A stretch of 64,000 bases of DNA from Patescibacteria group bacterium (GCA_038062895.1 JBBTWJ010000014.1:4036-68035); one strand, 5' to 3'; positions 3,873-41,905 are shown, counted from the stretch's first letter. Numbers and translations are program-made. The notes: generated by a model from the letters alone, not told the origin.

Positions 3873-4778
3873 TTATTTCAATCTTTTTTTCTCTTCCGGC
3901 TCATGGAGAAAGTTTTGTTTGGAGACGACTGAACGGCCGAGGCGTTTCTCAAGCTTTTTTCTTGCTCCTCCGGCTATATCGCCTCCGGCCTTGGCATCTG
4001 CTTTTAACTTGGGCACACCTTGGGAATCCTCATTCCGGTGAATTTCCGTCGTAGCGCGTTCGCCTAACATGTTAAAAATCAATTCAAAATCATCCATGTG
4101 GTCACGTAAATTCTCGCGTCGCAGACCCTTTAGTTTTTTATATTCACTCGGCGTGACCCCAAACGTGGCTTTAGAAATTTCTGCGGTCAGTATTTCATAA
4201 TCTCTGTCTTCTCTTGCTCCACGCTTCTGCCACTGGTCGGTCAACTCTTCCCGAATCGCAATCCCACGCATCCGTTTCTCTATCCAATCATCTGAATACC
4301 CTTTTAGCTTGTAGAGCATTCGAGTTCTCTTGGTGCCTAACTCCGGGTTTTCTATCTCCTGCACCCGCTCGTACCCCACGCGGGCTAGCCACCGTTTAAA
4401 AGGCTCAGCTTTTGGGGATGGTATGGATTGGATGAGTCGAAAAATACCTTCCGTATGCCAACAATAGGCTTTTTGTACTCCTCCCGGGGTTTCAATATCC
4501 AACATAAGGGGTGGTACAAATTGTACCCCTCCTTTGTCAGTCAATTTTGCTAGCTCCCCATCTCTCTCCTTGAGCCGTTTGAAGTATTGCGCTGGATCAC
4601 GAGAATTAGCTAACGCTTCGATGACATCATTCACCGAAAACCACCATTCATTGTTATAAATAGTTTTCCTGATCTTTTTGCCTTTAAACAGAGCGATTTT
4701 TGTTGCATCCATAAACAAATAAATACCTAATGAGTCAAAGTATACTCCACCTTCTGTAGGGACACGCCTCATGCTCAA
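3873..4778 (-). CDS. Bro-N domain / DinD-like (DNA-damage-inducible protein D family) protein
   Basis: 301 aa. N-terminal Bro-N-like segment (FKGKKIRKTIYNNEWWFSVNDVIEAL). The C-terminal segment KKLKGLRRENLRDHMDDFELIFNMLGE resembles E. coli DinD (KGLKKNQKILDHMGSTELAANLF). Confidence 0.65.
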   Translation of the reverse strand: MSMRRVPTEGGVYFDSLGIYLFMDATKIALFKGKKIRKTIYNNEWWFSVNDVIEALANSRDPAQYFKRLKERDGELAKLTDKGGVQFVPPLMLDIETPGGVQKAYCWHTEGIFRLIQSIPSPKAEPFKRWLARVGYERVQEIENPELGTKRTRMLYKLKGYSDDWIEKRMRGIAIREELTDQWQKRGAREDRDYEILTAEISKATFGVTPSEYKKLKGLRRENLRDHMDDFELIFNMLGERATTEIHRNEDSQGVPKLKADAKAGGDIAGGARKKLEKRLGRSVVSKQNFLHEPEEKKRLK

Positions 4779-6064: not shown

Positions 6065-6418
6065 TTATGACTCTATGACCACTCCCTCCAGGACGTCCAT
6101 ATCGATGAAGGGGTACAGGAGCCTCAGATTTTTGGTATTGGAACGGTAAAAAAGATCCGCAACGACCCCGATAAACGGGAGGAGCCCCAGGAGATAATCC
6201 AAAAAGATATGCCAACCCATCGTCCAATAAATCCGCGACGGGACCTTCAATTGATACGCAATCCAGAAGAGATAGCAGGAGATACCTGCGCCAATCATGC
6301 TTCCGAACCCCGGCAAGATGTCCAGGATCGGATCTATCCCAAACCGGATACCAAAAAAGTTAAATTTGGTATCCATGAGAGTCACCAGACGCTGAGCGAA
6401 CTCAATATGTGATTTCAT
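6065..6418 (-). CDS. DUF4112 family membrane protein
   Basis: 117 aa, two TM helices, GIDPILDILPGFG ... GLLPFIGVVADLFYRSNTKN pattern typical of DUF4112. Confidence 0.55.
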   Translation of the reverse strand: MKSHIEFAQRLVTLMDTKFNFFGIRFGIDPILDILPGFGSMIGAGISCYLFWIAYQLKVPSRIYWTMGWHIFLDYLLGLLPFIGVVADLFYRSNTKNLRLLYPFIDMDVLEGVVIES

Positions 6419-26500: not shown

Positions 26501-27387
26501 TCAATAGCCTAATGCCTTCATTTCATACCATTCGACTATCCCCGGGATTCAAGTTCTCCCTCATGGCTTCCCTATCCTGGGCCATCAGTATTGTTCTCAC
26601 CCGAACCATCCTCACGACCGGCGGGGAAAATGCATACACCCTGGCCTACTGGTCCACGATTCTTGCGACGCCATTTTGGGGCTATATGCTCTTGAGAAAC
26701 AAAAAGGAAGTTACAACATTAAAAAAGGGAGATCTGTATCTTTTTATCATCATGGGACTCATCGGAACCATAGGAGTGTCAATCGTGCAATCTCTGGCGC
26801 TTGCCAGTAGCAACGCGATCAATTATGCATTTCTCATCCGCACGGTCACGGTATTTACCATTCTCTTTGCGGCAGTATTGCTACGCGAACGCATGACGAA
26901 TAAAAAAGGAATACTGGTTACCCTGACGATCCTTGGCGCGTATCTTTTGACGACTGAAGGGCAAAGCTTAAAACTTACCACGGGGGATCTTTTCATCCTC
27001 TTACAAGCCATACTTCTCGCCCTCAATACAATCTTAGGAAAAATTGCTACGAATCGCATGAGCGCAAACGTAAGCGCAGCAGGAAGATTTTTTGCATCGT
27101 TCCTCCCTTTTACCCTCATCACTTGGTATCAGCAAGGACTGCAAGCGCCACACGCAATCCTCCCTGTTTTACTACTGACGGGAGTTTCCATCGTGGTGAC
27201 AACTACTCTTTTCCAAGCGTTTAAGCATGCTTCTGCTTCCTACGTGACGATGATTATGTCCTTCACGCCTGTCTTTGTATCCATCATCTCTATCCCACTT
27301 CTCCACGAGACGCTCTCAACCATGCAGATTCTTGGAGGGATTTTCATCATCGGCGCCGGTGTTGCAGCCGAAAAACTAAAAATATAA
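26497..27387 (+). CDS. EamA/DMT family transporter (second copy)
   Basis: 10 predicted TM helices in two EamA repeats. Confidence 0.7.
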   Translation: MINSLMPSFHTIRLSPGFKFSLMASLSWAISIVLTRTILTTGGENAYTLAYWSTILATPFWGYMLLRNKKEVTTLKKGDLYLFIIMGLIGTIGVSIVQSLALASSNAINYAFLIRTVTVFTILFAAVLLRERMTNKKGILVTLTILGAYLLTTEGQSLKLTTGDLFILLQAILLALNTILGKIATNRMSANVSAAGRFFASFLPFTLITWYQQGLQAPHAILPVLLLTGVSIVVTTTLFQAFKHASASYVTMIMSFTPVFVSIISIPLLHETLSTMQILGGIFIIGAGVAAEKLKI

Positions 27388-27395
27388 TACGCTTC

Positions 27396-27782
27396 TTATT
27401 TCCTCTTCGGAAGATTTTTGAAGAATCTTTGACGGATGTGTTTGGTGGTCTCCACACTTTGTTCCTGAAGCTTCTCGATCTGGGCTAGTGCGGTGTCCAA
27501 CCTCTCGGCTGCCACATCAGTAAGGTCTTCCTTTTTTTCTTTGATTTCGCCCACAACCTGCTCTTTGATCTCCTCGCCTTGTTTTACGAGCTCTTTTCCG
27601 CGCTTTTCCATCTCCTCAAGCTTTTCCTGAAGTTCTTCAAGCAAATCTTTTCCTTTATCCTCCAAGACTTTCCCGGTCTTTTTCCCTTCCTTCGTCCCCA
27701 TAAAAAACAGGAGAAGTGCTCCTAAAAGCCCTCCTATGAAAAACCCAAACCAAAATCTATTGTCGTGATTTCCTTTATCCAT
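27396..27782 (-). CDS. YtxH-like protein (N-terminal TM + coiled coil)
   Basis: FWFGFFIGGLLGALLLFF followed by a K/E-rich coiled coil. Confidence 0.5.
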   Translation of the reverse strand: MDKGNHDNRFWFGFFIGGLLGALLLFFMGTKEGKKTGKVLEDKGKDLLEELQEKLEEMEKRGKELVKQGEEIKEQVVGEIKEKKEDLTDVAAERLDTALAQIEKLQEQSVETTKHIRQRFFKNLPKRK

Positions 27783-27784
27783 AA

Positions 27785-28042
27785 TTAATCCTCCTGTTTT
27801 TTTCCCCGAAGAGAGGAAAACAATGATAATCCTGCCTTCACCCCACTCATGAGTCCGGCGACACTCGTAAAACCCGCGCTGACTGTACCCGTCACTTTGG
27901 TCGCGTCATCCAGCATGGTGTTCACTTTCTGAAAAGAAGTACGCATTTCTTTGAGGATATACCAAACCTGTACACCGAGGAATACAAACAGTGCCGTGAG
28001 GATGAGACTAACGGCTATGATGGTGAGTTGGACAGGATCCAT
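27785..28042 (-). CDS. DUF948-like (YtxG-like) small membrane protein
   Basis: 85 aa with an N-terminal TM helix. Sits immediately upstream of the ytxH-like gene, as in the Bacillus ytxG-ytxH pair. Confidence 0.45.
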   Translation of the reverse strand: MDPVQLTIIAVSLILTALFVFLGVQVWYILKEMRTSFQKVNTMLDDATKVTGTVSAGFTSVAGLMSGVKAGLSLFSSLRGKKQED

Positions 28043-28057
28043 ATGGGCAGACGTAGT

Positions 28058-28186
28058 GTAAATCCAAAATCCTAATTTCTAAATCCTAAATAAAAATTAA
28101 TGTTAAATGCGTAACTGTTTTGAATTTATAATTTTGAACATTTGGATTTGTTTAGGATTTAGTGCTTAGAATTTAGAATTTAAGAT
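28058..28186. repeat. MITE-like intergenic element, copy A (arms AAATCCTAATTTCTAAATCCTAAATAA / CATTTGGATTTGTTTAGGATTTAGTGCTTAGAATTTAGAATTT)
   Basis: 12-bp TIR core CTAAATCCTAAA / TTTAGGATTTAG. The family recurs at 32838-33325 and 38903-39045. Lies between the DUF948 gene start and the rodZ stop. Confidence 0.75.
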
Positions 28187-28217
28187 ATATCTAGTATCTC
28201 CTAAACGCTCTACGCTG

Positions 28218-28874
28218 TCAACGAGGGTTCGCCTCTTCTGTTTGGTTCATTACCGTTCTCGTCACGGTCGATGATTTTCCGTATCGGCTGGTTGCAATAA
28301 CGATGATCGTATTGTTTCCCGGCTCGAGAGTCACTTGGTCAAAAAACTTGCCGTCGCCACGCACAAGCACGGATATCCCATTCACCGTCACCGTCGCATC
28401 AGAATCCGTCACCCCGAGTACCTCGACTTTTTTCGTCGTAATGACGGCGCTCTCCTTCGGCGTTTCAATGGTAAGTCCAGGTGGACTTTGGAGTTGTCCA
28501 TATTGGAGACCTAAATATATGAGGAACGCCAAGACCAATCCCATAAAAAGAAATATGAGAAACTTACCCGGGGTCAACTGAAACCACGCGCGGTTCAAAG
28601 ACTGCGCCACTCCCGTTGGGAGAATGGATGATCTGGTTATTTCTTGCGTTTGCCGCCTAAAAAATGCGAGAATCGTGGGAGCCGGAATACCTAAAAACTC
28701 TGCATAGTTTTTTACAAAACCCTTCGCGTACGCTTGCGAGGGAAGACTACTATAGTCATCCGATTCGATACCCGCAAGGAACTTTGCACGAATTTTGGTC
28801 GAAAGTTCCGCCTGTTCAAACGTGAGATGTTTGGCTTCCCTCGCTTCTTTGAGGATAGATCCGACGGTTTTCAT
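28218..28874 (-). CDS. rodZ: RodZ-like cytoskeleton protein (HTH_25 + TM + C-terminal DUF4115-like domain)
   Basis: N-terminal HTH (LKEAREAKHLTFEQAELSTKIRAKFLAGIE) followed by a single TM. Confidence 0.6.
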   Translation of the reverse strand: MKTVGSILKEAREAKHLTFEQAELSTKIRAKFLAGIESDDYSSLPSQAYAKGFVKNYAEFLGIPAPTILAFFRRQTQEITRSSILPTGVAQSLNRAWFQLTPGKFLIFLFMGLVLAFLIYLGLQYGQLQSPPGLTIETPKESAVITTKKVEVLGVTDSDATVTVNGISVLVRGDGKFFDQVTLEPGNNTIIVIATSRYGKSSTVTRTVMNQTEEANPR

Positions 28875-31105
28875 TGCTGTTGCGCTTGTTGTTGTGCCAG
28901 ATACTCTTCTGCGTTTTTCATAAGGACGTCACGGGGTTTACTACCTTCCCCCGGGCCGATAATGCCTGACTCTTCCAGCTGATCCAAAATCCGCGCCGCC
29001 CGTGCGTAGCCGATCGAAAGCCGGCGCTGGAGAAGCGAAGCGGACGCTTTATCATATTGGCACACGAGCCGGATGGCATCTTCAAAAAGATTATCATGTC
29101 CGTCTCCGCCGGATGTCCCCACGTTCCCCTTTTTGCCACCCACCGGTACGGAGAGACTCGTCACTTCTTCAGTGTACTGGACCGGCATATTTTTACTCCG
29201 AAGAAATTCAACAAGCTTGCTGACTTCCTGCTCCGATACGAACGTTCCCTGGATGCGGCTGGGCTTGGCTTGATCCGGCGGTACGTAGAGCATATCTCCT
29301 TTTCCTAGTAGCTTTTCCGCTCCGGGCATATCGATAACGACCCTCGAGTCGACCATTGAGGAAACGCTAAAAGCGATCCGGGCCGGGACATTGGCTTTGA
29401 TAAGTCCCGTGATGACGTCTACCGACGGCCGTTGGGTAGCAAGCACTAAATGTATCCCGGTTGCCCGGGCCATCTGCGCGATCCGACAAATACTGTCCTC
29501 TACCTCCACAGGAGCATACGCCATGAGATCGGCAAGTTCATCAATGACGATGACGATATAGGGCATCGCTTGGAAACCGGAGAGTTCATTGAAGCTATCG
29601 ATATTTCGCACCCCCACTTCGGCAAACTGCTTATACCGGCTTTCCATTTCTCCCATCGCCCATCGAAGCGATGAAAGAATTTTATCCGGCTCGACGATGA
29701 CAGGAGTGAGAAGATGGGGTATGCCGTTATAACCCGTAAGCTCAACCCGCTTGGGATCAACCATGATAAACCGTACTTCCTGCGGCGTCGTACGAAAAAG
29801 CAGCGAACATATCCACGAGTTGATGAGGACGGATTTTCCTGATCCTGTCGTACCGGCAATCAGGACGTGCGGCATCTTCCCGATATCCCCGATCACTGCA
29901 CTTCCGGATACATCCAGACCCAAAGCAACGGTCAGCTTACTCTTCGCTTTACGCATCACCTCGGATCCAAGCATATTTTTAAGCGTCACAAACTCCAAGC
30001 CTCTATTGGGTATTTCTATGCCGACGAGCTTTTTCCCCGGAATCGGTGCTTCTATACGGACCTGGCCCGTGGGAGCCGCGAGAGCCAAAGCGAGATCACT
30101 GGAAAGTGCAGTGATCTTGGATACTTTGGTCCCCAGAGCAATCTCGAGGGCATATTGGGTGACTGCCGGGCCTTTATTGACTTCTACCACATCTGCTTTG
30201 ATGCCAAACCCTTCTAACGTTTTTTCGATAACCTGCGCATTATCGCGTACATCACCCCTGTCCGCTTTACCACCCGGCCCGTCGGAGAGAAGCGAAAGCG
30301 GCGGATATTCCCAGACGGCTGTGCCCTCTCCCGCCTGCGCGTTTGCCAGTGGAACTTGAATCTTCAATTCGGATTTAGGCGTTGCGGCAGACTTATCTCC
30401 ACCGGACACAGGTGGCGGCACCATGGGCGCTTTTGCAGACAGTCTCCCATCATCACCGCCTTTAATTCTTAAGATAGGTTTATCTTCTCTCTCAAAAAGA
30501 GGCTTTTCGCGCCGGCCGGTCATACGCTCGAGCGCCGTATTTGCCCATTCGAAGATGGCCTGCGCCCCCATAAATAAAAAGTTCATAAACCGGTCAAGAG
30601 AAGCGTTAAAAAGAACGATGAGACTTATCATAAAAAGTCCAAGTGCCGCGATGACTGCTCCTTCCGGAGCGATTGCTCCCGATAAAAGCGACCACAAGAA
30701 AACTCCCATATCCCCCGATTGCGTGAGTGTCGCCAGCGAAATGAGCATGAGCCCAATACCTAAGGGCACGTTGGGACGACCGATGTCTGATTTGACTTTA
30801 AAAAACAGAAAACTCGCCGATACGAGAAATGGGGGGGTGAGATACATGATCCACCCGACGTGGGTAGTAAGAGCGTCCCGAAGCGACGTAAGCACGGTGC
30901 CTTCACCGAAAAACGAAAGCGTAATAACTGCCGCAAACAGCCACATCCAGATCGCCCCGACGGTATACACCGTCTGTTGTTTGAGTTTAAATTGGAAGGG
31001 GCTGTGCTTCTTGTACCTTCTGCGCTTTCCCCCGCCAAAGATTGACCGTTTCATCGTAAAAACTAGTATAGAAGGATATGGCGCTACTGGCAAGCTTGAG
31101 GACAA
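28871..31105 (-). CDS. ftsK: DNA translocase FtsK/SpoIIIE
   Basis: N-terminal TM domain, a linker, a motor domain with Walker A (GTTGSGKSV) and a C-terminal gamma domain. Confidence 0.9.
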   Translation of the reverse strand: MSSSLPVAPYPSILVFTMKRSIFGGGKRRRYKKHSPFQFKLKQQTVYTVGAIWMWLFAAVITLSFFGEGTVLTSLRDALTTHVGWIMYLTPPFLVSASFLFFKVKSDIGRPNVPLGIGLMLISLATLTQSGDMGVFLWSLLSGAIAPEGAVIAALGLFMISLIVLFNASLDRFMNFLFMGAQAIFEWANTALERMTGRREKPLFEREDKPILRIKGGDDGRLSAKAPMVPPPVSGGDKSAATPKSELKIQVPLANAQAGEGTAVWEYPPLSLLSDGPGGKADRGDVRDNAQVIEKTLEGFGIKADVVEVNKGPAVTQYALEIALGTKVSKITALSSDLALALAAPTGQVRIEAPIPGKKLVGIEIPNRGLEFVTLKNMLGSEVMRKAKSKLTVALGLDVSGSAVIGDIGKMPHVLIAGTTGSGKSVLINSWICSLLFRTTPQEVRFIMVDPKRVELTGYNGIPHLLTPVIVEPDKILSSLRWAMGEMESRYKQFAEVGVRNIDSFNELSGFQAMPYIVIVIDELADLMAYAPVEVEDSICRIAQMARATGIHLVLATQRPSVDVITGLIKANVPARIAFSVSSMVDSRVVIDMPGAEKLLGKGDMLYVPPDQAKPSRIQGTFVSEQEVSKLVEFLRSKNMPVQYTEEVTSLSVPVGGKKGNVGTSGGDGHDNLFEDAIRLVCQYDKASASLLQRRLSIGYARAARILDQLEESGIIGPGEGSKPRDVLMKNAEEYLAQQQAQQQ

Positions 31106-32842
31106 TCAAACTTCCACGATCACCGGAACGATGAGGGGGTGGCGGCCGGTTTCTTTCGCCAAGAGGCTAGAAAGATTTTCGCTGATTTGCTTCCTCACAA
31201 AAAGCCAGTCCATCATCCGGCCTTTCTTGAGACGCAGCGATTGGAGAATAACGTGTCGGGCTTGATCCAGAAGTACTCCCGAGTCTTTCATATACACAAA
31301 GCCACGGGATATGATATCCGGACCACTCGTCACCTTGCCGGTAGACTTCTGAATTGGGATGACGACTACCACGATGCCTTCCGTGGCAATCGTCTGCCGG
31401 TCGCGCAGAACCACACTCCCTACGTCTCCCACACCGAGTCCGTCAACCATCACGTTTTCCAACTCAACGGTCTCAACCACCCGAGGCGGATTATGAGGGC
31501 TAAACTCCAATACCTGCCCCTCCTCCGGGACGAGAACATCTTTTTTGTCGAACCCCAAATCTTGCGCGAGCCGCCGATATTGCATAAGGTGCTTATAGGT
31601 GCCGCCGATCGGAAAAACATACCGCGGCCCCAGAGCGGACAAAAGAAGCATCATATCCCCCTGGCTCCCATGGCCGGAGATGTGAAGATCTTCCATGATA
31701 TCGCTATAAGAAACCCGCGCGCCTTTGCGGTAAATCTGATCGATGAGGTTATTGACATCATGTTCCCGTCCCGGTATGGGATCAGCGGAAATGATCACCG
31801 TATCCCCTTCATCTAAAGTCACAAATCGATGATTATCATTGGCAATCCGTGACAGAGCGCTATCCGGCTGACCCTGGCTACCGGCCACGACCAAAAATTG
31901 TTTGGTAGCCGGCACCCGCTTGAGATCCCGGTCACGCACCAGCGCTTCGCGCTCAAACTTCATGTAGCCGAGCTTAACGGACTCCTCGACGTTTTGGTCT
32001 ATGCTGCGCCCCAAGAATGTCACGTGTCTGCCATATTGGATAGCCAGCTCAATCGCCCTCTGGATGCGCGATATATTGCTGGACTGTGTCGTAAAGAGCA
32101 CTTTTCCGGTTGCGAGTTTCAGCTCCTTCTCGATCGTCTCTCCGACGACCTGCTCGGAGGGCGTAAATCCCGGCCGTTCGCTGCCAAGTGAATCAGACAA
32201 AAGACACAAGACTCCTCGTTTGCCCACCGCATTGATTTTGGCAAGTTCCGAGCGCTTGCCGTCCAGAGGATCAAAATCAAACTTAAAATCACTGCCATGA
32301 TAAAAAATTCCCATCGGTGTTTCGATGATGAGATTGGCAGCATCCGGCACCGAATGGGTCATGCGCACAAATGATACGGTAAACGCACCGATGATCAATG
32401 TTTTGTCAAACTCCACGGGCGTGACCCGGGTGTTGAGTTTAATCTCCCGGAGTTTGATATTGGCAAATGCTGCCGTCAGCGTCGTCCCCCACATGGGGAC
32501 GTTGCCGAGCTTGCTATAGACATACGGAATGCCGCCGATATGGTCGTCGTGACCGTGTGTGAAGACGAGTCCGCGGATATATTGTTTTTTATTTTCCAAA
32601 TACCGGACGTCCGGAATGACCACATCCACCCCATACATTTCAGGATCCGGAAACCCTATCCCGCAATCCACAATGAGAATATCACGGATCTTTCCCTCTA
32701 CACGGTACTCATACACAAACATATTTTTCGTTACGTTGCCCGTGCCCCCAAGCGGGATGATCCGGACCGAATCTTTACCGGTTTTTGAGGATCCCTGAAA
32801 AATCGTCCTGTGCTGTGTTTTCCAAAAACTCATAATTTTCAA
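31106..32842 (-). CDS. rnj: ribonuclease J
   Basis: MBL + beta-CASP with HGHDDHIGG and RNase J-specific N- and C-terminal regions. 578 aa. Confidence 0.9.
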   Translation of the reverse strand: MKIMSFWKTQHRTIFQGSSKTGKDSVRIIPLGGTGNVTKNMFVYEYRVEGKIRDILIVDCGIGFPDPEMYGVDVVIPDVRYLENKKQYIRGLVFTHGHDDHIGGIPYVYSKLGNVPMWGTTLTAAFANIKLREIKLNTRVTPVEFDKTLIIGAFTVSFVRMTHSVPDAANLIIETPMGIFYHGSDFKFDFDPLDGKRSELAKINAVGKRGVLCLLSDSLGSERPGFTPSEQVVGETIEKELKLATGKVLFTTQSSNISRIQRAIELAIQYGRHVTFLGRSIDQNVEESVKLGYMKFEREALVRDRDLKRVPATKQFLVVAGSQGQPDSALSRIANDNHRFVTLDEGDTVIISADPIPGREHDVNNLIDQIYRKGARVSYSDIMEDLHISGHGSQGDMMLLLSALGPRYVFPIGGTYKHLMQYRRLAQDLGFDKKDVLVPEEGQVLEFSPHNPPRVVETVELENVMVDGLGVGDVGSVVLRDRQTIATEGIVVVVIPIQKSTGKVTSGPDIISRGFVYMKDSGVLLDQARHVILQSLRLKKGRMMDWLFVRKQISENLSSLLAKETGRHPLIVPVIVEV

Positions 32843-33325
32843 ATTCCAAATCCTAATTTCTAAATCCTAAATAATTTCAAAATATAAAATTCAAATGTCT
32901 AAAACAATCACTTATTCCGATTTTGTAACAATCGACCCAAAAATTTTACAGAACTCATTGGCTTCTTGTATCAACCGAATTCTTTCTTTCTCTAACGTTT
33001 CGTTTTGACTTATAACAATAAGTTGAAGCCAATATTTGGACTCCTTAGATTCTTTTCTACAAATCTTGATTCGATGAAAAAAATCTTTCTTACTTATAGC
33101 TTCATTCGCCTCTATATAGTTGGCCCCAATAGATCCAGACGATCGAATTAATTGAGGGCCATCTTCAATATTAGAGATTGTCCGTGATAGATGTATCACC
33201 AAACTGCGACAATCACGGGCAAAAATAAACGTTCGTTCTTCAAGATCATAGTGTTTGTGCATTGGTATTTCGGTCATTTGAATTTGTTTAGGATTTAGTG
33301 TTTAGAATTTAGGATTTCCTAAATC
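32838..33325 (-). mobile_element. MITE-like element copy B carrying a four-helix-bundle protein gene as cargo
   Basis: The same two arms as copies A and C flank the 366-bp AT-rich gene 32912..33277. Its ATG is the CAT at 33275-33277, which is the first triplet of the conserved right arm (CATTTGAATTTG...). Confidence 0.65.
32912..33277 (-). CDS. four helix bundle protein (TIGR02436-like, rRNA intervening-sequence-type protein)
   Basis: 121 aa. The RSSGSIGANYIEANEA and SKKDFFHRIKICRKESKESKYWL segments resemble the four-helix-bundle family often encoded in 23S rRNA IVS and other insertions. Locally low GC. Confidence 0.6.
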   Translation of the reverse strand: MTEIPMHKHYDLEERTFIFARDCRSLVIHLSRTISNIEDGPQLIRSSGSIGANYIEANEAISKKDFFHRIKICRKESKESKYWLQLIVISQNETLEKERIRLIQEANEFCKIFGSIVTKSE

Positions 33326-34424
33326 AATACGTCTCCATATACTCCTTCATATTTTTTTGTGTGATGTGGAAACTCTTACCCTTTCCTTCCACAATCATCC
33401 TGGCTACCTTCCGGCACAGGGCATTCATCGTCCGCTCAAGACTACGGATACCGGCATCATAACCCAGAGGACGGACAAGTTTGGGCCAGAGCTCCTCATC
33501 AATGGTTAAATTTTCGCCCGTCAGTCCCGACTCCCGCATAAGTTGCGGCATGACATAGTCTTTGGCAATTTTAATCTTCTCTTCATCGCTATATGATGGC
33601 ATCTGTATCGGCTCGATGCGGTCCAGGACGGCGGTGGCGATATTGGTGGTATTATTGCCGGTCGCAATGAAGAGTACCTCTGAAAGATCAAACGGAAAGT
33701 CCAAATAGTGATCGGTAAACGCTACATTTTGTTCCGGATCCAAAAGTTCCACTAACACCCCCATGATATCTCCGCGAGTCCCTTCCGCTACCCGGTCGAT
33801 TTCATCCAGTAACATCACCGGATTACGGCTTCCGGCAAACCGGAGCCCTTTGAGGATAAGCCCAATCTCCGCATCCGGTCGGACCCGCGACTGACCACGC
33901 AGATCCAACGCATCGCTCATGCCGCCAAACGGAATTCTTATGAACCTGCGTCCCATAGATTCGGCAATAGACTTGGCAAGCGTCGTTTTCCCGGTTCCCA
34001 CGAGTCCAACGAGGCAAAGAATGGGGGCCCGCCGGGCTAGGATGGAATGGGAAAGTTTCGCTTCTTTATTTTGCCCTTCCTCTTTCTTTTGTTCCTCGTC
34101 CCACCGTAGTTTATTGAGTTTGAGTATCGCAAGATATTCTAAAATTCTTTCTTTCACCGGCTCCAGACCGTAATGGTGCTTATCCAGTATTTCGCGCGCA
34201 CGTACTAAGTCCACGACATCCGTGGTCCGGACATTCCACGGAAGATTCACGACCCAATCCACGTACCGCAACATCTGCTCGATATGGACACGGGAGCTGA
34301 TATCATGCTCAAGCCGAACGATCTCATCAAGATTTCCTTGGACGCGGGACTGGAGCGCTTCTGGCAAGCGCGCTTCGGTAACTTTTTTCCGCAGGCTTTC
34401 TACTTCTTCAATCATTTTAGACAT
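33324..34424 (-). CDS. Lon-like AAA+ ATPase lacking the N-terminal globular domain and the S16 protease domain
   Basis: Aligns to E. coli Lon from about residue 240 to 590. The HHYGLEPVKERILEYLAIL hallmark, Walker A (LVGLVGTGKTT), Walker B and sensor 2 are present. Ends at ...CRKVARMIVEGKGKSFHITQKNMKEYMETY, exactly at the ATPase/protease boundary. No protease domain lies downstream. Confidence 0.7.
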   Translation of the reverse strand: MSKMIEEVESLRKKVTEARLPEALQSRVQGNLDEIVRLEHDISSRVHIEQMLRYVDWVVNLPWNVRTTDVVDLVRAREILDKHHYGLEPVKERILEYLAILKLNKLRWDEEQKKEEGQNKEAKLSHSILARRAPILCLVGLVGTGKTTLAKSIAESMGRRFIRIPFGGMSDALDLRGQSRVRPDAEIGLILKGLRFAGSRNPVMLLDEIDRVAEGTRGDIMGVLVELLDPEQNVAFTDHYLDFPFDLSEVLFIATGNNTTNIATAVLDRIEPIQMPSYSDEEKIKIAKDYVMPQLMRESGLTGENLTIDEELWPKLVRPLGYDAGIRSLERTMNALCRKVARMIVEGKGKSFHITQKNMKEYMETY

Positions 34425-34493
34425 ATACTCATCATAACCTAACGTCTTTGGAGAAAAAAGAGTGAGGGTTCCTTTGAAGGGTACGGTGTATTC

Positions 34494-36659
34494 CTAAAAT
34501 CTCCTATTCCCCCGGTTAAATGGACGACGGGGACGATCACCGAAATCATGGTGCTCGCGGGGAGGCGCTTTTTTGGCATCCTCGCCGAAGAGCATAGAGA
34601 GATTGACGCGTTTCTGGTCGTCTATCTCCATCACCCTGACTTTTACTTTTTGACCAAGAGCGACCACGTCATTCGGAGAGCTCACAAATCCTGTGGACAT
34701 CTGGGATACGTGCACCATGCCTTCTTTACCCGGCAACACCTCAACAAATGCACCGAACGGTAAAATCCGTTTGACCTCTCCTTCGTATTCATCGCCGGGT
34801 ACCAAGTCTTTGGTGAGTCCCTCTACCCACTCCACGGCCTTTGCTACCGCTTCGTCCGAACCGGAAATCATGACGGATCCATCATCCTCGACATCCACCG
34901 TGGCTCCGGTTGTGGCGATAATCTGCCGGATCATCTTGCCTCCGGGTCCGATGACTTCGCCAATTTTTTCTGTAGGAATTTTCACAACTTTTACCCGGGG
35001 TGCATACTGGGAGAGAGTTTTCCGAGACTCCGGCAATGTAGCAAGCATGACTTCTAAAATCTTCATTCTCGCGCTTTGAGCCCGGGTCAGCGTTTCACTC
35101 ACCATCTCATCGGTAATGCCGTCAATCTTCATGTCAAGCTGAATTGCGGTAATCCCATTTTTCGTACCCGCGACTTTAAAGTCCATATCTCCGGCAAAAT
35201 CCTCGATGCCGAGAATATCGGTAAGAAGGACGTATTTTTTCTCATCCGTCATGAGACCGATGGAAATACCTGCGACCGGCTCTTTTATGGGAACTCCGGC
35301 ATCCATGAGGGCAAGGGTTGATCCGCATGTTGAGGCCATGGACGTCGATCCATTACTGGACATAATTTCTGACACGAGACGGATGGTATACGGAAACTCG
35401 TCTTCTGACGGAATGACGGAGAGAAGAGCGCGTTCGGCAAGTGCTCCGTGACCAATCTCTCGGCGGCTCGGAGTCCCGACTCTGCCGGTCTCTCCCACAG
35501 AGTATGGCGGCATGCTGTAGTGATGGATATATCGTTTGGATTCTTCACCGATCGGACTTTCGAGAAGTTGAGCGAGAGCCGGTGTGCCCAATGTCACGAT
35601 CGTGAGAGCCTGTGTCTGACCGCGCTTAAACATAGCGCTTCCGTGCGTCCTGGGAAGAATTCCTACGTCCACAGAAATGGGCCGGATTTCATCAAGCTTC
35701 CGCCCGTCAAACCGTTTCGCTTTGGTCAGAACCAATTCCCGGACTTGTTTTTTAAATAGCGCGTCCAGAGCCTCTTCTATCGCCTTCACACTATATTGCG
35801 TGCCATACGCCTCCGCGATCGTTTTGGAAAGAGCCACGACCTCATCACCGCCAAATTCTTTTTCTGCTTTTTTGGCAAACGCTTCAGTCATTTCTTTCTT
35901 GTAGTCATCCGTGATCTTCTTTTTGAGCTCATCGGCGGCGCTTACCTCCGGCACCGCGACTTTCGGCTTACCGACTTCGCGGGCGAGTGAGTCAATGAGG
36001 TCAATAAGCTTGACATTGGCTTCTTTCGCTTTTTGTACGGCTTCAAATACCACTGCCTCGGGCGTTTCACAAAATCCCCCTTCAAGCATCATGGTTTTCT
36101 CTTTCGTGCTGGCAATGACAAAATCAAACTCACTCTGCGCCTGCTCCGGAAGGGTTGGATTAATGATAAACTTACTGTCCCCATTTTCATTCACGTATCC
36201 CACCCGGCAACCTGCTATCGGTCCGTTCCAGGGGATCGGCGAGATGGCAATAGCCGCGCTCACGGCGACTAATGCCAAGACATCCGGGTCGTTTTCTGCA
36301 TCGACAGAAAGAACGGTGATGATGACCTGCACATCATGCTTATATGATTTCGGAAACAACGGACGGATGGACCGGTCAATAATACGGCCGGCAAGCACGG
36401 CATCATCCGTCGGCCTTCCTTCGCGCTTGACCCACCGGCTGCCTTTAATCCTGCCCCCGGCATAAAGCCGCTCGACGTATTCCACGCTTAATGGAAAATA
36501 ATCAAGAGTTGTTTCTTTAGAAGATGCGGTAACGGTTGCCAGAACCATCGTATCGCCAAAACGTGCCAATACCGCCGCAGATGCCTGTTCGGCAAATCGG
36601 CCAACTTCTAAAGAAAGTTCTTTCCCGTTTAACTCTATGAATTTTTTGACAAGCTTCAT
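34494..36659 (-). CDS. pnp: polynucleotide phosphorylase
   Basis: Two RNase PH domains plus KH and S1 domains. 721 aa. Confidence 0.9.
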   Translation of the reverse strand: MKLVKKFIELNGKELSLEVGRFAEQASAAVLARFGDTMVLATVTASSKETTLDYFPLSVEYVERLYAGGRIKGSRWVKREGRPTDDAVLAGRIIDRSIRPLFPKSYKHDVQVIITVLSVDAENDPDVLALVAVSAAIAISPIPWNGPIAGCRVGYVNENGDSKFIINPTLPEQAQSEFDFVIASTKEKTMMLEGGFCETPEAVVFEAVQKAKEANVKLIDLIDSLAREVGKPKVAVPEVSAADELKKKITDDYKKEMTEAFAKKAEKEFGGDEVVALSKTIAEAYGTQYSVKAIEEALDALFKKQVRELVLTKAKRFDGRKLDEIRPISVDVGILPRTHGSAMFKRGQTQALTIVTLGTPALAQLLESPIGEESKRYIHHYSMPPYSVGETGRVGTPSRREIGHGALAERALLSVIPSEDEFPYTIRLVSEIMSSNGSTSMASTCGSTLALMDAGVPIKEPVAGISIGLMTDEKKYVLLTDILGIEDFAGDMDFKVAGTKNGITAIQLDMKIDGITDEMVSETLTRAQSARMKILEVMLATLPESRKTLSQYAPRVKVVKIPTEKIGEVIGPGGKMIRQIIATTGATVDVEDDGSVMISGSDEAVAKAVEWVEGLTKDLVPGDEYEGEVKRILPFGAFVEVLPGKEGMVHVSQMSTGFVSSPNDVVALGQKVKVRVMEIDDQKRVNLSMLFGEDAKKAPPREHHDFGDRPRRPFNRGNRRF

Positions 36660-36836
36660 GAAAAAATATTTATGAGGGAATGTTTGAAGTGAGATTGCTT
36701 GAACTGTTCATCCGCGCGTCTGCGGATCAATACCTCAAGAGATCACACTTCATGGATACTTCCCTCTCTCACACGAGTATACAACCTTTGTCATTCCTAC
36801 GCTAGAAGCAATAATCAGGAGTCTCGTGGATGACGA

Positions 36837-37259
36837 TCACTTTGCGAGTCCCAATTTCTGCGATACTTCTTTAAATCGAGCAACGTCTTTTTTCTCAAGG
36901 TAGTTAAGGAGACGTCGGCGCTTACTGACGATACCGAGCAATCCGCGTCTCGAATGGTTATCCGACGGATTACTCTTGAGATGTCCGACGAGCTTCTCGA
37001 TCCGCTTGGTCAGAAGTGCAACCTGCACTTCAGGACTCCCCGTATCCCCGGCTTTCACCTGAAATTGCGTGATGACTTCTTGCTTTTCTGCGCTCGGGGC
37101 AGCCACGGGACCAGTCTGTGCTTCAGCGGCTTTTGCCTTTTTGGTTAATTTGGTAGGCTTGGCTTGCTTCGCCGGTTTTGTATCCACTTTCACCGCTTTC
37201 ATTTTTACGGCACCGGTTTTTTTGGTCTTGGCAGTCTTTGTTGTTTTTTTTACTGGCAT
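36837..37259 (-). CDS. rpsO: 30S ribosomal protein S15 with about 55-aa Lys/Ala-rich N-terminal extension
   Basis: The C-terminal 85 aa are canonical S15 ([27 protein letters not shown]...). The N-terminus is [17 protein letters not shown]... in a histone-H1-like style. Confidence 0.85.
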
Positions 37260-37624
37260 AGTCGAAGTACTGATGATTCAATAGTTAAAAAATGAAGCAC
37301 TTGTGCGCTCCACTTAAGATGTAGTTTACATGATTACAACCCAAAAAACAAGGGATTATTGCTATACCGCTGTTGTTGGCGACCTCCTCTATCTCGTGCA
37401 ACAATATCGCACCATCTGATACATGATGAGGATTGTTTTCCTTAAATTTCTCACAACGCCTACGTATCACCCGGGCAAATTCAAGATAAAACAGCGTCTG
37501 TTCCTCCTGCAGGAGTGTGTCGATACGATAATGATGGATCAGTTGTTCAAGGAGGCTAAAAATCTGCGGGTCATTGGTATCCAGAAGTATAGTATTCATG
37601 GCAGAGTAAAAAAATCGAAAATTA

Positions 37625-37918
37625 TCACATAATCTCTTGACCATGACCTTTTTCAACAAAAAAACCTCTTCCGTCTGCTTTGAGCACACTCACTGTGTAG
37701 CTATCATCGTACACAAACAGCGTGTATGGTACCGTATCGCCACGAGCATTCATGCGTCCTTCTAAATAGTTCACAGCTCTAAAGCAGCCTTTGGGGTCAC
37801 CGTTATCATTTAATCCACAACATCCAAATCGAGTTTCTGTATATATACATACACCACTAGCTCCACCGATTGAACAAGGGAAACATTCTTTAACTTTTTT
37901 CGGGTTAGTGAGACTCAT
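37625..37918 (-). CDS. hypothetical Cys-rich small protein
   Basis: 97 aa with CFPCS...GVC...GCCG...GC. No family recognised. Confidence 0.3.
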   Translation of the reverse strand: MSLTNPKKVKECFPCSIGGASGVCIYTETRFGCCGLNDNGDPKGCFRAVNYLEGRMNARGDTVPYTLFVYDDSYTVSVLKADGRGFFVEKGHGQEIM

Positions 37919-37931
37919 AAATCATTATCTA

Positions 37932-38897
37932 TTACAATAAATTTGAGCTCTTAAATATCTTCGGCTTGAGCCAGTCGGCTGGAGCTTGCCCACCGGAAGA
38001 TACCGGCTGACCCATTGGTTGCATTCCTTCATGAGCCGTAACGTGAGGATGCGGGTGATCATGTACAGTCTGGGAGACGAATGGTTGCGTCGTAGTTTCC
38101 ATGGGCTGAGATACCACGGTTTCTTCAAATGGCTTTTCTTCCGGAGTGGGAACAACTTGCGCCCCAAACCGCTTCCCGCCGGCTTTGAGAGCAACGGATG
38201 CCACATCAAAGGCTCCTGCGGAGACATTGGCTGCGGTAAAATTAGTGGTCCCGCCATACACAGCGTTGAGGAGGTTGGTCGCAATATCAACAGTCAGCTT
38301 GACGCCGAGCATCGAAAGGACCCGTGCGACGACTTCGGCGGTGGTCGAGGCTGCCATATCAACGACATTAACCGCCCCATATAATGCATTATTCGGATGC
38401 CGGTCGACGTTCACGATCTGTTTACCGGCAAAAAGGTCCTTATTGCCTTCGTATAACTTTTTTAATCCCCCAAGGTGAATCGTGTTCACGGAAAATATGA
38501 GGTCCGCGCTGCCACTTGCATAAGAATAGTGTACTTTCTCCTGGGAAAAAGTCTCAAATCCAACCCTTGGCTCAACCACGAGATTAAATTTATCGCCTTC
38601 GATATTGTAGCTGACTTTTTCTATCGACCCGTCGACGTAGTCGAGCGAAATGACAAAATTTTTCTTCGCGGAAAGATCAGTAATCACCTTGTTCACCCCG
38701 ACGTATCCAGATAACCCGACCGTAATCGCATCCGGACAAGCAATAGTCACCTTTTTTCCAAGGCTTAAGAGACCTAAATACAACGCGAGGCTTGCGCCGG
38801 TGCTGTCGTCTGTGGGATTTTCATGCGTAACGATCAGGACATCCTTGGCTTTTGCCAACATATCCTTGATCTTGGTGACTTCAGCTTGATAGTCCAT
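37932..38897 (-). CDS. DHH family phosphoesterase (NrnA-like oligoribonuclease/pAp phosphatase)
   Basis: DHH N-terminal motifs (LIVTHENPTDDSTGASLAL; VNVDRH) and a DHHA1-like C-terminus. Confidence 0.7.
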   Translation of the reverse strand: MDYQAEVTKIKDMLAKAKDVLIVTHENPTDDSTGASLALYLGLLSLGKKVTIACPDAITVGLSGYVGVNKVITDLSAKKNFVISLDYVDGSIEKVSYNIEGDKFNLVVEPRVGFETFSQEKVHYSYASGSADLIFSVNTIHLGGLKKLYEGNKDLFAGKQIVNVDRHPNNALYGAVNVVDMAASTTAEVVARVLSMLGVKLTVDIATNLLNAVYGGTTNFTAANVSAGAFDVASVALKAGGKRFGAQVVPTPEEKPFEETVVSQPMETTTQPFVSQTVHDHPHPHVTAHEGMQPMGQPVSSGGQAPADWLKPKIFKSSNLL

Positions 38898-38902
38898 ATA
38901 TT

Positions 38903-39045
38903 CTCAAATCCTAAATCCTAATTTCTAAATCCTAAACAAACAATAAATTCAAATGTCAAAAATTCTAAACAGTTTCGTATTTTGGATTTTAGTCATTTGG
39001 ATTTGTTTTGAATTTAGAACTTGGAACTTAGAATTTCCCATTCTA
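38903..39045. repeat. MITE-like intergenic element, copy C
   Basis: Arms CTCAAATCCTAAATCCTAATTTCTAAATCCTAAA and CATTTGGATTTGTTTTGAATTTAGAACTTGGAACTTAGAATTT. Lies between the nrnA-like start and the infB stop. Confidence 0.75.
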
Positions 39046-39056
39046 GCCTATAGGCT

Positions 39057-40631
39057 TTATTGGGTGAAGGCGATTATATCATCTCCTATAGTAAAATCAA
39101 GCTTTTGATCAAAAAGTACTCCGCATTCGTGGCCAATGTCTGCTTTGGTAATATCGTCTTTCCCGTGACGGAGTGACTTGATCTTAGCACGGGCGACTTC
39201 TGTCCCTCCACGCATGATCTTCACCCGGTCCCCACGGGCAAGCCTCCCGGATACGACTTTTGTGCCTGCGATACGATCCCGTTCGAAAGGAAATTCCGCA
39301 ACGACCTGTCCTTCCCCAAGCTGCCGCTCCTCATGGAGCACTTCTTTTAAGCCTGCAATCACCTCTCCCAATTCGTCCAAAAGTTCATAAATGATCCGAT
39401 ACATCCGATACACCACTTTTTCCGTCTCGGCAAGCTTGACGACCCCCGCTTTAATCCCGACGCCAAACCCAATAACAATAGCTTTTATTGATTTAGCCGA
39501 TAAAATATCCGCCTCCGTGATATCCCCGACTCCCCGTTGAACCACGATCACTTTTTTGGGAAGAGAAGCAATGATGGCTTCCAGCGACCCTGCAGTATCG
39601 GTTTTAAGAATAATATTGATGATTCGATCGGCTTCCAGATCGATGGGTTTGAGAAAATCCGGAAGTTCATCAATCAGTGACGGTGTGGGATTTCCGGTGA
39701 GCGTGTTGGACGGCGTGTCCTGCGCGATTTCGTCCGCAGCGCCAAAAAGCGTGGTACCCACCTCGGGAAGCTTCGTGAAGCCTAAAACTTCGACCGGTTT
39801 ACTGGGAAGCGCAGCTTTTACGGCGGTACCCCGCTCATCATTCATGGCACGGACTTTTGCTATCTGACTGGCCCCGTCGTAGAGCGCATCACCTACGGTA
39901 AGCGTCCCATTTTTGACGATAAGCGTGGCTACCATGCCCTTTCCTTTATCTACCCTTGTCTCAATGACGATTGCTTCGGCTACTGCTTTTGGATCGCCGA
40001 TCAATCCTTTCATGTCGCTTACTAAGAGAATGAGGTCCAAAAGCTCACTCACCCCTGTGCCCTGTTTGGCAGAAATGAGGATAAACGGTACGTCACCACC
40101 AAACCCTTCTACTTGCACCCCGTGTTTGGCCAAATCCTGTTTAACGCGATCTACTTGCGCTGTGGGAAGGTCCACTTTATTGATGGCAACAATCACAGGA
40201 ATACCAGCGCTTTTTATTTGCTCAATAGACTCGACGGTTTGAGGCTTCACGCTATCATCGGCAGCCACGACCAAAATAGCGATATCTGCAGCCCCAGCGC
40301 CGCGCGCGCGCATCTTTGTAAACGCCTCATGTCCCGGAGTATCAATGAAGGTGATTTTGCGCTCCTGCACAAAATCATCCTGAGCCTGTCGAAGGATCTC
40401 TGTTTTTTTTCCGGGGGGGATCCCTCGGCTCCCTTCGGTCGCTCGGGATGACCGTTCGGAAACGGTCATCTGATACGCTCCTATAGCCTGGGTAATCCCA
40501 CCATGCTCGCCGCCTGCGACGTTTGTTTTTCGGATGGTATCAAGAAGTGTGGTTTTTCCGTGATCAACGTGACCCAATACTGCCACGACGGGTGGACGAG
40601 GAACGGGTAGTTGTGGTTGTGTCGATTTCAT
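39057..40631 (-). CDS. infB: translation initiation factor IF-2 (minimal form: G domain + domain II + C-terminal domains)
   Basis: [20 protein letters not shown] and NKVD G motifs. 524 aa. Contains an in-frame insertion of about 30 aa between the GAYQ and ITFIDTPGH strands. Confidence 0.9.
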
Positions 40632-40760
40632 ACCAGGTAGTAGATTTTCGATATTCCTTCGGAATAAAAACCCTCTGTTTTACAAAAAGGTTTCGATAAA
40701 CGCCAGGCATTGGATAAATTTGGGCTCTCTCAAAGATCGAAAATTCACTACCTGGCATAC
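40629..40760 (-). repeat. structured leader element copy 1 (TIR GTATGCCAGGTAGTGAATTTTCGA ... TCGAAAATCTACTACCTGGTATG) between nusA stop and infB ATG
   Basis: Read on the minus strand, the element begins directly after the nusA TAG and ends in the infB start codon. Related elements occur at 55700-55836, 58720-58854 and 61533-61667. Confidence 0.7.
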
Positions 40761-41905
40761 TATTCACTCGACTTGTTCTCTGTATCCGGTGTTTCTTTCG
40801 TTTCCTCCGGTGTATGTTCCTCTTTCTTTTCCTTTTCTTTTGTTCCCTTTTCTTTTGTTTTTTTACTGACTGGCGGCTCCTTTTTCTCTTCACCGGGCTT
40901 GCCCGTGTCGCTGACATCACTCGCGTTACTCGTGTTGCTCGTGTTACTTGCGTTGCTAGTCTTCCCCTTTATATCTATCTTCCACCCGGTCACCTTAGCG
41001 GCTAACCGCACGTTTTGACCTTCCCGCCCGATGGCGAGCGACAGCTGGTCTTCCGGTACAAATACTTCCGCTGCTTTCTTTTTTTCATTCAGCCGGACTT
41101 CCAACTCCTTGGCGGGAGCCAGAGCAGCCGTAATAAATTGACGTATATCTTCACTCCATTGGATAATATCTACTTTCTCGTTCCCACCCAGCTCGTTGAT
41201 AACCGCTTGGACTCGTACTCCCTTTTGTCCGACACACGAGCCTACCGGATCGACACCGGATTGGTTGGAAAATACAGCGAGCTTCGTGCGTCCTCCTGCC
41301 TCCCTGGCAATGATGCGAAGCTCAACAGCTCCGGAGGCCACTTCTGGCACTTCCCGTTTAAACAACCCTTCCACGAGGCCCTTATGTGCACGGGAGACGA
41401 TAATCTCGTTGCCGCGCATGGTCTCACGAATGCCTTCAATATAAAACGTAAGCCTCTGGTTTAAGTGATACCGCTCACTGGGACTTTGCTCTTGAGGAGG
41501 CATGACGGCCTGTGCACGACCAATATCCACGATGATATTAGGACCGTCAAACCGCAGGATCATGCCGGTACCGATGCTGCCGACTTTCGCTTGAAAATCA
41601 GCAAGCACTGCCTGCTTTTCCGCTTCGCGGATCCGCTGGAGGATAACCTGCTTGGCCGTCTGTGCTGCAATCCGACCAAATCCCGGAGGCGTAATGTTGA
41701 CGCCATCTTTGAAGATCTTGGCTTCTCCGTTATCGGCGTTGAGCTCAACCGTCAGCGTCTCGAGTTCCGTCGTCCCGTAATCTTTGCGGTATGCGGCTAA
41801 AATTGCGGCTTTAATCGTCTCAATGACCACTAGGGGATCAATCCCCCGCTCGGTGGCGACTTGATTGAGCGCTAATGCAAATTCGCTTCGTACAATTGCT
41901 GGCAT
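40760..41905 (-). CDS. nusA: transcription termination/antitermination factor NusA with low-complexity K/E/T/S-rich C-terminal tail
   Basis: NusA N-terminal domain, S1 domain and two KH domains. The tail is encoded by 9-bp tandem repeats (NTSNTSNAS). Confidence 0.9.
   Translation of the reverse strand: MPAIVRSEFALALNQVATERGIDPLVVIETIKAAILAAYRKDYGTTELETLTVELNADNGEAKIFKDGVNITPPGFGRIAAQTAKQVILQRIREAEKQAVLADFQAKVGSIGTGMILRFDGPNIIVDIGRAQAVMPPQEQSPSERYHLNQRLTFYIEGIRETMRGNEIIVSRAHKGLVEGLFKREVPEVASGAVELRIIAREAGGRTKLAVFSNQSGVDPVGSCVGQKGVRVQAVINELGGNEKVDIIQWSEDIRQFITAALAPAKELEVRLNEKKKAAEVFVPEDQLSLAIGREGQNVRLAAKVTGWKIDIKGKTSNASNTSNTSNASDVSDTGKPGEEKKEPPVSKKTKEKGTKEKEKKEEHTPEETKETPDTENKSSE

Follow-up and report, generated by a model that had tools for sequence, protein, structure and literature searches.

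The 64-kb stretch of Patescibacteria group bacterium DNA analyzed here (GCA_038062895.1, JBBTWJ010000014.1:4036-68035; Hainich groundwater, ENA ERZ1292625), referred to as the window and as W where its copies are compared with those of relatives, contains three palindromic elements at gene junctions: copies A (28060-28181), B (32841-33317) and C (38906-39036). The safest statement about them is that, judged by sequence, they belong to the family whose members in rRNA genes are known as intervening sequences (IVSs). We further consider it fairly probable that they are members of a cosmopolitan, palindromic and IVS-type family that is slowly mobile and whose hairpin transcripts are cut by RNase III. 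Copies A and C are short hairpins lacking an open reading frame (ORF), while copy B carries between its arms a gene for a four-helix-bundle protein of the 23S_rRNA_IVP family (hereafter IVP). An earlier note on this DNA had described the three as a family similar to miniature inverted-repeat transposable elements (MITEs) that doubles as a terminator and ribosome-binding cassette, a description that survives in part, as set out below.

Three Copies at Operon Junctions

An nhmmer profile built from 37 family members matches the 64 kb only three times, at A, B and C. The window contains the 24-mer AAATCCTAATTTCTAAATCCTAAA three times and no more, against a chance expectation of zero, and the 12-mer core of the arms, with up to one mismatch, occurs eight times versus 0.32 expected. 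A repeat finder paired the arms of the copies both as inverted repeats (I3 and I4) and as direct families (D2, D3 and D5). The earlier note had placed three copies with inverted arms at these junctions, had distinguished short forms without an ORF from a long, gene-bearing form and had located the ATG of that gene in a conserved arm; all of this is borne out, with the limits of the copies refined. The arms that it named are real, but its left arm is the 3' arm and its right arm the 5' arm of the transcript, because all genes around the copies are on the minus strand. The GC content of the copies is 22-32% (22% in A), compared with 47% for the window.

The genes are co-directional at each junction, in the order NusA, IF-2, [C], DHH/NrnA-like, ..., S15, PNPase, Lon-like AAA, [B], RNase J, FtsK, HTH_25/RodZ-like, [A], an 85-aa gene and YtxH-like. 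As had been noted before, each copy lies just upstream of a start codon, with distances of 15 (A), 7 (B) and 8 nt (C) from the element end. Copy A (minus strand; nhmmer E 1.2e-19) is found between the HTH_25/RodZ-like gene (28218-28874) and the 85-aa gene (27785-28042); the earlier assignment of the latter to DUF948 is not upheld (E 0.075, 13.7 bits against a cutoff of 37.2). Its 5' arm in transcript sense (28142-28181) reads AAATTCT AAATTCT AAGCACT AAATCCT AAACAAATCCAAATG, with a period of 7 in TRF, and is followed by a vestigial ATG (28141-28139), recognized by its sequence, and by the 3' arm (28060-28096), TTTAGGA TTTAGAA ATTAGGA TTTTGGA TTT. Copy B, the long form on the same strand, occupies the spacer between the Lon-like AAA gene (33324-34424) and the RNase J gene, rnj (31106-32833), with nhmmer arm matches at 33228-33317 and 32842-32923. 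Its 5' arm (33278-33317), AAATCCT AAATTCT AAACACT AAATCCT AAACAAATTCAA, stands directly before the ATG of the IVP gene (32912-33277), which lies in the loop co-oriented with the operon, and its 3' stem and arm (32841-32911) read GTTTTAGACATTTGAATTT...TTTAGGATTTAGAAATTAGGATTTGGAATTT(G). Copy C, again on the minus strand (nhmmer E 3.5e-26), separates the IF-2 gene (39057-40631) from the DHH/NrnA-like gene (37932-38897).

Heptamer Arms and Hairpin

Every arm is an array of a 7-nt unit (TRF period 7, 3.4-4.7 units per arm), with (AAAYYCT)n on one side and the inverted (AGRRTTT)n on the other, and an element without an ORF is about 115-160 bp long overall. The 5' arm runs AAATCCT AAATTCT AAGCACT AAATCCT AAACAAA TTCAAATG, and the 3' arm is the inverted series ...TTTAGGA TTTAGAA ATTAGGA TTTGGAA TTT. 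The non-repetitive center (AAACAAATTCAAATGACC...) and the inverted layout are common to 37 aligned short copies from many organisms, in which invariant columns, A in the 5' half and T in the 3' half, are set at 7-nt intervals from one end to the other. The element is thus a palindromic arrangement of about nine heptamers per side.

The sense RNAs of copies A and C are each predicted to fold into one long hairpin (-28.5 kcal/mol with z -5.2, and -33.2 kcal/mol with z -3.4, respectively), and the whole of copy B is predicted to form a single hairpin with its arms paired (z -4.7). The predicted folds thus show in all three copies a feature of IVSs, namely terminal inverted repeats pairing into a long stem of the transcript. 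Codons 1-8 of the B ORF belong to the 5' heptamer array and pair with the sequence right after the stop codon as an inner stem, so that the ORF from codon 9 to the stop is the hairpin loop; by alignment, A and C are the same hairpin minus this loop. The earlier note took the short copies to be derived from a cargo-bearing parent such as B. This is not supported, as the arms of A and C are as close to elements of other phyla as to those of B, and copy C keeps an ATG and eight IVP-like codons, MTKIQNTK, that are nearer to the family consensus MTEIQNSK than is the MTEIPMHK of B.

The Four-Helix-Bundle Gene of Copy B

The 366-nt ORF of copy B encodes 121 aa that match PF05635 (E 4e-11) and TIGR02436 (63.6 bits against a cutoff of 24), in agreement with the four-helix-bundle family proposed previously. 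The nearest solved structure is PDB 2RLD (E 5.6e-11), and the RxxxSxxxNxxE motif of IVP proteins (PMC3936711) is found as R44-S48-N52-E55. Between W and the relative L127, the dN/dS of the gene is 0.075 at a dS of 1.17, compared with 0.05 for RNase J, which indicates that the gene is under strong purifying selection. The 5' arms of the same two copies are about 95% identical, so that the arms differ by about 5% and the synonymous sites of the ORF by 59%, and the mean identity among seven long forms is 86% in the 5' arm, 77% in the 3' region and 68% in the ORF. In these alignments the arms are evidently more conserved than the ORF that they enclose.

At least 7998 relatives of the B protein were found, and the best 120 are nearly all about 121 aa long (117-146), 60-84% identical and mostly on very short contigs. 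Several short contigs with IVP genes (L003-L006, L128, L129 and L131) end inside the 3' arm or within about 70 nt of it, seven of them within a few nucleotides, as is expected if the arms are multi-copy and break assemblies. Among plasmids and GenBank phages, the search for carriers of the gene returned only distant homologues from cyanobacterial plasmids (<46% identity) and two partial phage matches. ORF-bearing copies are co-oriented with their neighbors at all 5-6 independent sites, which fits a promoter-less gene expressed by read-through.

At the loci examined, the arms accompany only the 121-aa subfamily "MTEIQNSK...ANYIEANEA"; other PF05635 genes (in L021, L037 and L076 and the second such gene of L212) either lack them or have different inverted repeats. 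The second gene of L212 (6985-7362, minus strand) is a distant, PF05635/bAvd-like gene of 125 aa between type IV secretion system pilin genes, and it is flanked by the inverted repeat TAGTGTGTAG / CTATACACTA. Because this gene has an inverted repeat of its own, hairpin-flanked insertion into operons may be general for the PF05635 family.

In the Candidate Phyla Radiation (CPR), insertions of both 16S and 23S genes have been reported to contain IVP ORFs (PMC11270868). IVP genes have also been reported as scattered inside cas operons (PMC3936711), and a 366-bp four-helix-bundle gene between gmk and nadD is given in a Flavobacterium columnare genome table (PMC5524665). The family described here would explain the "four helix bundle protein" genes that are wedged into unrelated operons of many genomes.

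Distribution in Genomes, rRNA Genes and Phages

A scan with the arm pattern TTTAGGATTTAGNNNTTAGRATTT, in which each species was represented by one genome, yielded matches at at least 120 loci labelled as about 12 phyla, the taxon labels being those of the metagenome-assembled genome (MAG) records. The listed loci are labelled Patescibacteria (many classes), Planctomycetota, Chloroflexota, Gamma- and 'Delta'-proteobacteria, Omnitrophota, Elusimicrobia, Nitrospirota, Actinomycetes, Bacteroidota, Verrucomicrobiota and Bdellovibrio. As several of the matches are on contigs of 0.2-3.4 Mb, mis-binning cannot account for this breadth. Complete intergenic hairpins of the same design number 59 among the at least 120 loci listed, and the 37-member profile matches 91 of the 120 listed arm-pattern loci. 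Loci anchored on PNPase and thus chosen independently of the element (0.96 Mb) served as a sample of its background frequency; they contain 11 other family matches, some of them partial, in seven loci, plus the orthologous remnant of copy B in L136. The elements usually occupy the whole spacer in which they lie.

Full cassettes with the same arms are found in one Pirellulales MAG, one Terrybacteria MAG and two unclassified MAGs, as well as between czcB and czcA of a Brocadia genome and in a Patescibacteria genome of 1.08 Mb; in the last two, CGAA/TTCG replaces CTAA/TTAG on both arms. An iterated HMM of the ORF detected few IVP genes near the listed genome matches, because most of the matches are without an ORF. 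Partial ORF remnants are rare (L136 only), which makes the short form a discrete size class and not part of a continuum of decay.

The window has no rRNA genes, and A, B and C lie between protein-coding genes, so that they do not share the typical location of an IVS; Rfam gave no match at E <= 1 in 27000-40000 and none at gathering score across the whole window. Elsewhere, the family is found at exactly the IVS sites. The 23S gene of L026 (Paceibacterota) has two short copies precisely in terminal loops, at positions 583/584 and 1218/1219 of the large-subunit model; these positions are the loops of helices 25 and 45, where IVSs are classically found. Further copies are inside the 23S gene of L096 (Saccharibacteria) and inside the 16S gene of L095 (Thermodesulfovibrionales). 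The earlier note had recognized the protein family as one known from rRNA IVSs and had missed that the element family is itself the rRNA IVS family, present in many phyla.

The same pattern also matches 45 viral contigs. Four different small phage contigs contain 3-4 short copies each, with up to four in one contig of 6 kb, in the spacers between co-directional genes that include those for the portal and the major head proteins. Two copies in the phage contig L241 are near-identical over about 100 nt and have unrelated flanks. In this contig, a tiny stem-loop after each element encloses the GGAG of the next gene (1133-1170, 1713-1740, 2781-2803 and 4252-4270; e.g., CUCCGAAGGAG).

Two other observations concern the make-up of the matches. 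Long, pure (TTTAGGA)n arrays are present in L024, L035, L043, L084, L122, L033 and L089, from Flavobacteriaceae, Anaerolineales, Microcoleus and others, and those of L089 and L033 run into TTAGGG-like repeats. GC-rich mini-palindromes are nested in the AT-rich elements of L110 (~3100-3120), L092 (~1130-1170) and L022 (~6210-6230), e.g., CCTGCCTGCCGGCAGGCAGG, and resemble secondary insertions of a different, very small repeat.

History at the Three Junctions

Orthologous loci were recovered through the IVP protein and through PNPase and mapped by tblastn; the relatives of the window are labelled Gottesmanbacteria. Junction C is empty in L127, L139, L133, L140 and L130, where the stop codon of IF-2 and the ATG of the DHH gene are 2-12 nt apart. 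Junction A is empty in L136 and L139, the two closest relatives that cover the site, and the more distant L130 has there a spacer of 102 nt that may be a decayed copy of A. Copies A and C are most simply read from this comparison as gains in the lineage of the window.

W, L127 and L130 have the complete cassette at junction B. L136 keeps both arms and only codons 1-16 and 60-91 of the ORF, as left by an internal deletion, and L139 has no trace of the cassette and reads TAA TCCGCA ATG. L139, L136 and L127 are the three closest relatives, with PNPase 86-89% identical, and L139 is as near to W as L127 is. Copy B is also absent in L133, L134 and L141. The IVP identities of 83.5% and 71% are in step with those of the neighboring genes (77-87% and 65-78%), which together with the pattern of presence argues that B is old and vertically inherited in this clade. 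On the same comparison, copy B appears to have been lost at least once cleanly and once partially. In L135, the place of the IVP cassette between the Lon-like and RNase J genes is taken by another ORF, about 200 aa long (3290-3890), so the same gene boundary has accepted another insertion.

The claim of mobility stands as far as insertion polymorphism and the near-identical phage copies with unrelated flanks are concerned. What fails is the classical MITE picture, with respect to a transposase and to target-site duplications, for which the evidence is given below.

Transcript Processing and Competing Explanations

We propose that, in the course of evolution, gene boundaries acquire and lose these elements, which would settle at positions that can accommodate one more hairpin: operon spacers, phage late operons, the 5' domain of 16S rRNA and the tips of helices 25 and 45 in 23S rRNA. 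Each copy, transcribed with its host operon, would fold into an imperfect double-stranded RNA stem of about 40-60 bp, an expected substrate of RNase III by analogy with the rRNA IVSs. In rRNA this would excise the element; in the operon of the window it would sever the polycistronic mRNA at three points, separating IF-2 from nrnA, the Lon-like gene from rnj and the RodZ-like gene from the 85-aa gene. The gene of copy B would be expressed by read-through from a start codon in the stem and kept by purifying selection. Processing of the mRNA copies A, B and C by RNase III would be the most likely molecular consequence, since excision is established for rRNA IVSs of the same build and a stem of 40-60 bp is a natural substrate.

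Several results weigh against this proposal. Only 74% of the arm positions are Watson-Crick paired in 59 short elements, and their arm mismatches show no G.U preference between strands (195 vs. 200), no overdispersion of the per-element G.U skew (chi-square 45.4, 58 df, p 0.89) and no excess on the gene-sense strand (104 vs. 105). A vestigial ATGAC left 46 of the 59 without an assigned orientation. No G.U bias was found in 9 long forms and 13 phage copies either. Fold energies and G.U counts over these 59 short, 9 long and 13 phage copies thus give no sign of strand-specific selection except for the copy inside the 16S gene of L095, which has a G.U bias on the rRNA strand (9 vs. 1), and it follows that pairing in mRNA is not visibly selected. 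Across the family, the only stem that RNAalifold retains is an invariant core of 12 bp, because the heptamer registers shift between the arms, and for this reason the nhmmer profile was used in place of a covariance model. The arms are instead conserved as sequence, in heptamers, which points to recognition by a protein and is not explained by RNase III alone. The spacers of the short forms, 67 tandem, 11 convergent and 10 divergent, are distributed approximately as the background. The mobility that the proposal assumes also lacks the usual marks: the longest direct match between flanks averages 3.32 in 57 elements, whose ends are fuzzy as the number of heptamers varies, compared with 3.27 +/- 0.13 in permutations; no target-site duplication is seen between filled and empty junctions; flank complementarity gives no signal; and no transposase or other mobility enzyme with the same ends was found at the loci examined, where the four-helix-bundle gene is the only one between the arms.

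The absence of wobble asymmetry, as for sites read as sequence, together with the strict conservation of the heptamers and their invariant A/T columns, argues that something reads the arms as sequence, and the only gene found with the arms encodes a pentameric four-helix-bundle protein, which makes this protein the obvious candidate reader. Such a model is the candidate main rival of, or complement to, cleavage by RNase III. In its full form, which we regard as possible though on the unlikely side, the protein is a cis-acting partner, the arms are iterons bound as DNA or RNA by its pentamer, the ORF-bearing copies are autonomous, the short hairpins are their non-autonomous riders, as in RAYT/REP or insertion sequence/MITE pairs, and the RNA hairpin is a side effect. 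It would account for arms that differ by some 5% where synonymous sites differ by 59%, for the restriction of the arms to the 121-aa subfamily to the exclusion of other PF05635 genes and for the discrete size class of the short forms. The five chains of 2RLD, the pentameric Xanthomonas homologue (PMC4990558) and the homologous accessory protein Avd of diversity-generating retroelements (DGRs; PMC10053308) fit it as well. However, members of the family outside DGRs have no known nucleic-acid-binding or catalytic activity, the phage contigs with 3-4 short copies encode no IVP, and for most short copies no IVP gene lies within 8 kb. A bolder version, in which the hairpin and the 121-aa gene are one self-propagating system and the source of bacterial rRNA IVSs, with the pentamer reading the 7-nt iterons and helping both kinds of copy, with and without the ORF, to be copied into gene boundaries and hairpin loops of rRNA, operons and phages across a dozen phyla by a chemistry undescribed for mobile DNA or RNA, seems to us doubtful.

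The reading of the earlier note, a DNA-transposon MITE that arose by deletion from B and is used as a terminator and ribosome-binding cassette, is improbable. It is in line with the inverted arms, the short and long forms, the insertion polymorphism and L136, which shows that internal deletion of the ORF occurs; A and C, which are 122 and 131 bp long, non-coding and bounded by inverted repeats, have the build of MITEs, and B is not one because it carries a gene. Against the terminator role, none of the 11 terminator-like sites in 27500-39500, a total no higher than in shuffled sequence, falls in the arms or the short copies, whose stems are AT-rich and have no GC clamp; one weak site (33044-33025) is inside the IVP coding region of B. 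A general supply of Shine-Dalgarno (SD) sequence is contradicted by copy A, which lacks any SD-like motif in the 20 nt nearest the start, by rnj, which has none in the relatives with an empty site and so needs none, and by the phage copies, where the downstream gene keeps a separate GGAG of its own. Only at junction C does the element offer AGGA and GAG, 11 and 5 nt before the ATG, where the native AGGA is displaced, and copy C plausibly replaces it. The missing target-site duplications and transposase, and the lack of any special similarity of A and C to B as compared with elements of other phyla, speak against the remaining parts of this reading.

That the copies are ancient regulatory spacers, inherited vertically with their operons and not mobile at all, would agree with the presence of B at one junction in W, L127 and L130 and with the divergence of its gene in step with its neighbors, but it is contradicted by the empty junctions A and C of the relatives, by the absence of B in L139, L133, L134 and L141 and by the occurrence of the same element in unrelated contexts, in many phyla, rRNA genes and phages; we consider it very improbable. 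The chance that the copies are low-complexity sequence or local microsatellite expansions of no common origin is close to nil: the arms are indeed period-7 repeats and some genome matches are pure (TTTAGGA)n arrays, yet the center and inverted layout shared by 37 copies and an exact 24-mer that occurs three times where none is expected contradict it.

Promoter consensus was found inside none of the elements. Promoter-like hexamers are present just upstream of copy A (TTGACA-17-GATACT, 28193-28221, minus strand) and of copy C (TTGATT-16-TATAAT preceded by TG, 39073-39100, minus strand), in both cases in the 3' end of the preceding gene, and the pair upstream of C is kept in relatives as coding sequence.

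Relation to Known Systems

In architecture, copy B resembles the S23p IVSs of Leptospira and Coxiella burnetii. These are sporadic insertions of about 430-490 nt, poorer in GC than their host, whose terminal inverted repeats form a long stem that closes a loop with a PF05635 ORF, and RNase III excises them (PMC4990558). Short members of the present family occupy the same loops of helices 25 and 45. The copies of the window differ from these IVSs in being located in mRNA spacers and not in rRNA, and heptamer-array arms are not reported for the latter. The ORF of the Coxiella IVS is reported to be decaying and untranslated (PMC4990558), unlike that of the window, which is under strong purifying selection. 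The homologous, pentameric four-helix-bundle fold of Avd links the IVP protein to DGRs (PMC10053308), but B belongs to a different subfamily and has no reverse transcriptase or template/variable repeats nearby.

Copies A and C share their design with the ORF-less 23S IVSs of Salmonella, Yersinia and Campylobacter. The latter, which are known from rRNA genes only, are likewise hairpins (about 90-150 nt) and occupy the loops of helices 25 and 45. Burgin et al. (1990), a study cited in PMC4990558 and PMC2801512, are reported to have shown that such IVSs are removed by RNase III without religation. As a model of how A and C may work, the Correia elements of Neisseria, also called NEMIS, appear to be the closest: these are palindromes of about 100-155 bp in intergenic spacers, co-transcribed with genes, and RNase III reportedly cuts their hairpin RNA and thereby changes mRNA stability (De Gregorio et al. 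2002-2003). Unlike the present family, they have TA target duplications, are confined to one genus and have neither an ORF form nor heptamers. The repetitive extragenic palindromes (REP) and their mosaic elements (BIME) likewise have many short palindromic intergenic copies and a few in which inverted repeats surround one small gene, RAYT, thought to act on them; RAYT, however, is an HUH Y1 transposase, and the gene here encodes a PF05635 four-helix bundle without known catalysis. The intercistronic RNase III sites of phage T7 are hairpins between the cistrons of highly expressed phage operons, much as the phage copies of our family flank portal and major-head genes, but they are short and unique and form no dispersed repeat family. 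Tandem 7-nt intergenic repeats are also known as STRR from heterocystous cyanobacteria, reportedly since Mazel et al. (1990); they have other units and no inverted arrays around a conserved center.

In the searched literature we found no description of heptamer-array arms, for which searches of the arm sequences as text returned unrelated primer lists only, and none of ORF-less hairpins as one family across rRNA, operons and phages or of their conservation across phyla. The window links in one sequence family the IVS hairpins at canonical rRNA sites, ORF cassettes in operons, copies beside phage head genes and a conserved 7-nt architecture, and so bears on the origin and spread of bacterial rRNA IVSs and on the role of their small protein, which have been questions since 1990. 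In the annotation of CPR and other environmental genomes, these elements explain AT-rich spacers as well as contig breaks.

A Second Hairpin Family in the Window

A second, unrelated family of hairpins of about 140 nt is present at 40625-40765 (minus strand) and at 55695-55840, 58715-58860 and 61528-61673 (plus strand). It has a 23-bp closing stem, UAUGCCAGGUAGUGAAAAUUCGA ... UCGAAAUUUCUACUACCUGGUAUG, and fold z values of -5.9 to -8.0, and it has no match in Rfam. Its 3' arm ends in AUG in the copies at 40625-40765, 55695-55840 and 58715-58860, and at 40631 this AUG is the start of IF-2. The copy there occupies the NusA|IF-2 spacer, which is 28 nt long in the relative L127. Two of the copies are overlapped by an exact direct repeat of 300 nt (58448-58747 and 61261-61560, 2813 nt apart), a sign that a block of genes may recently have been duplicated in tandem.

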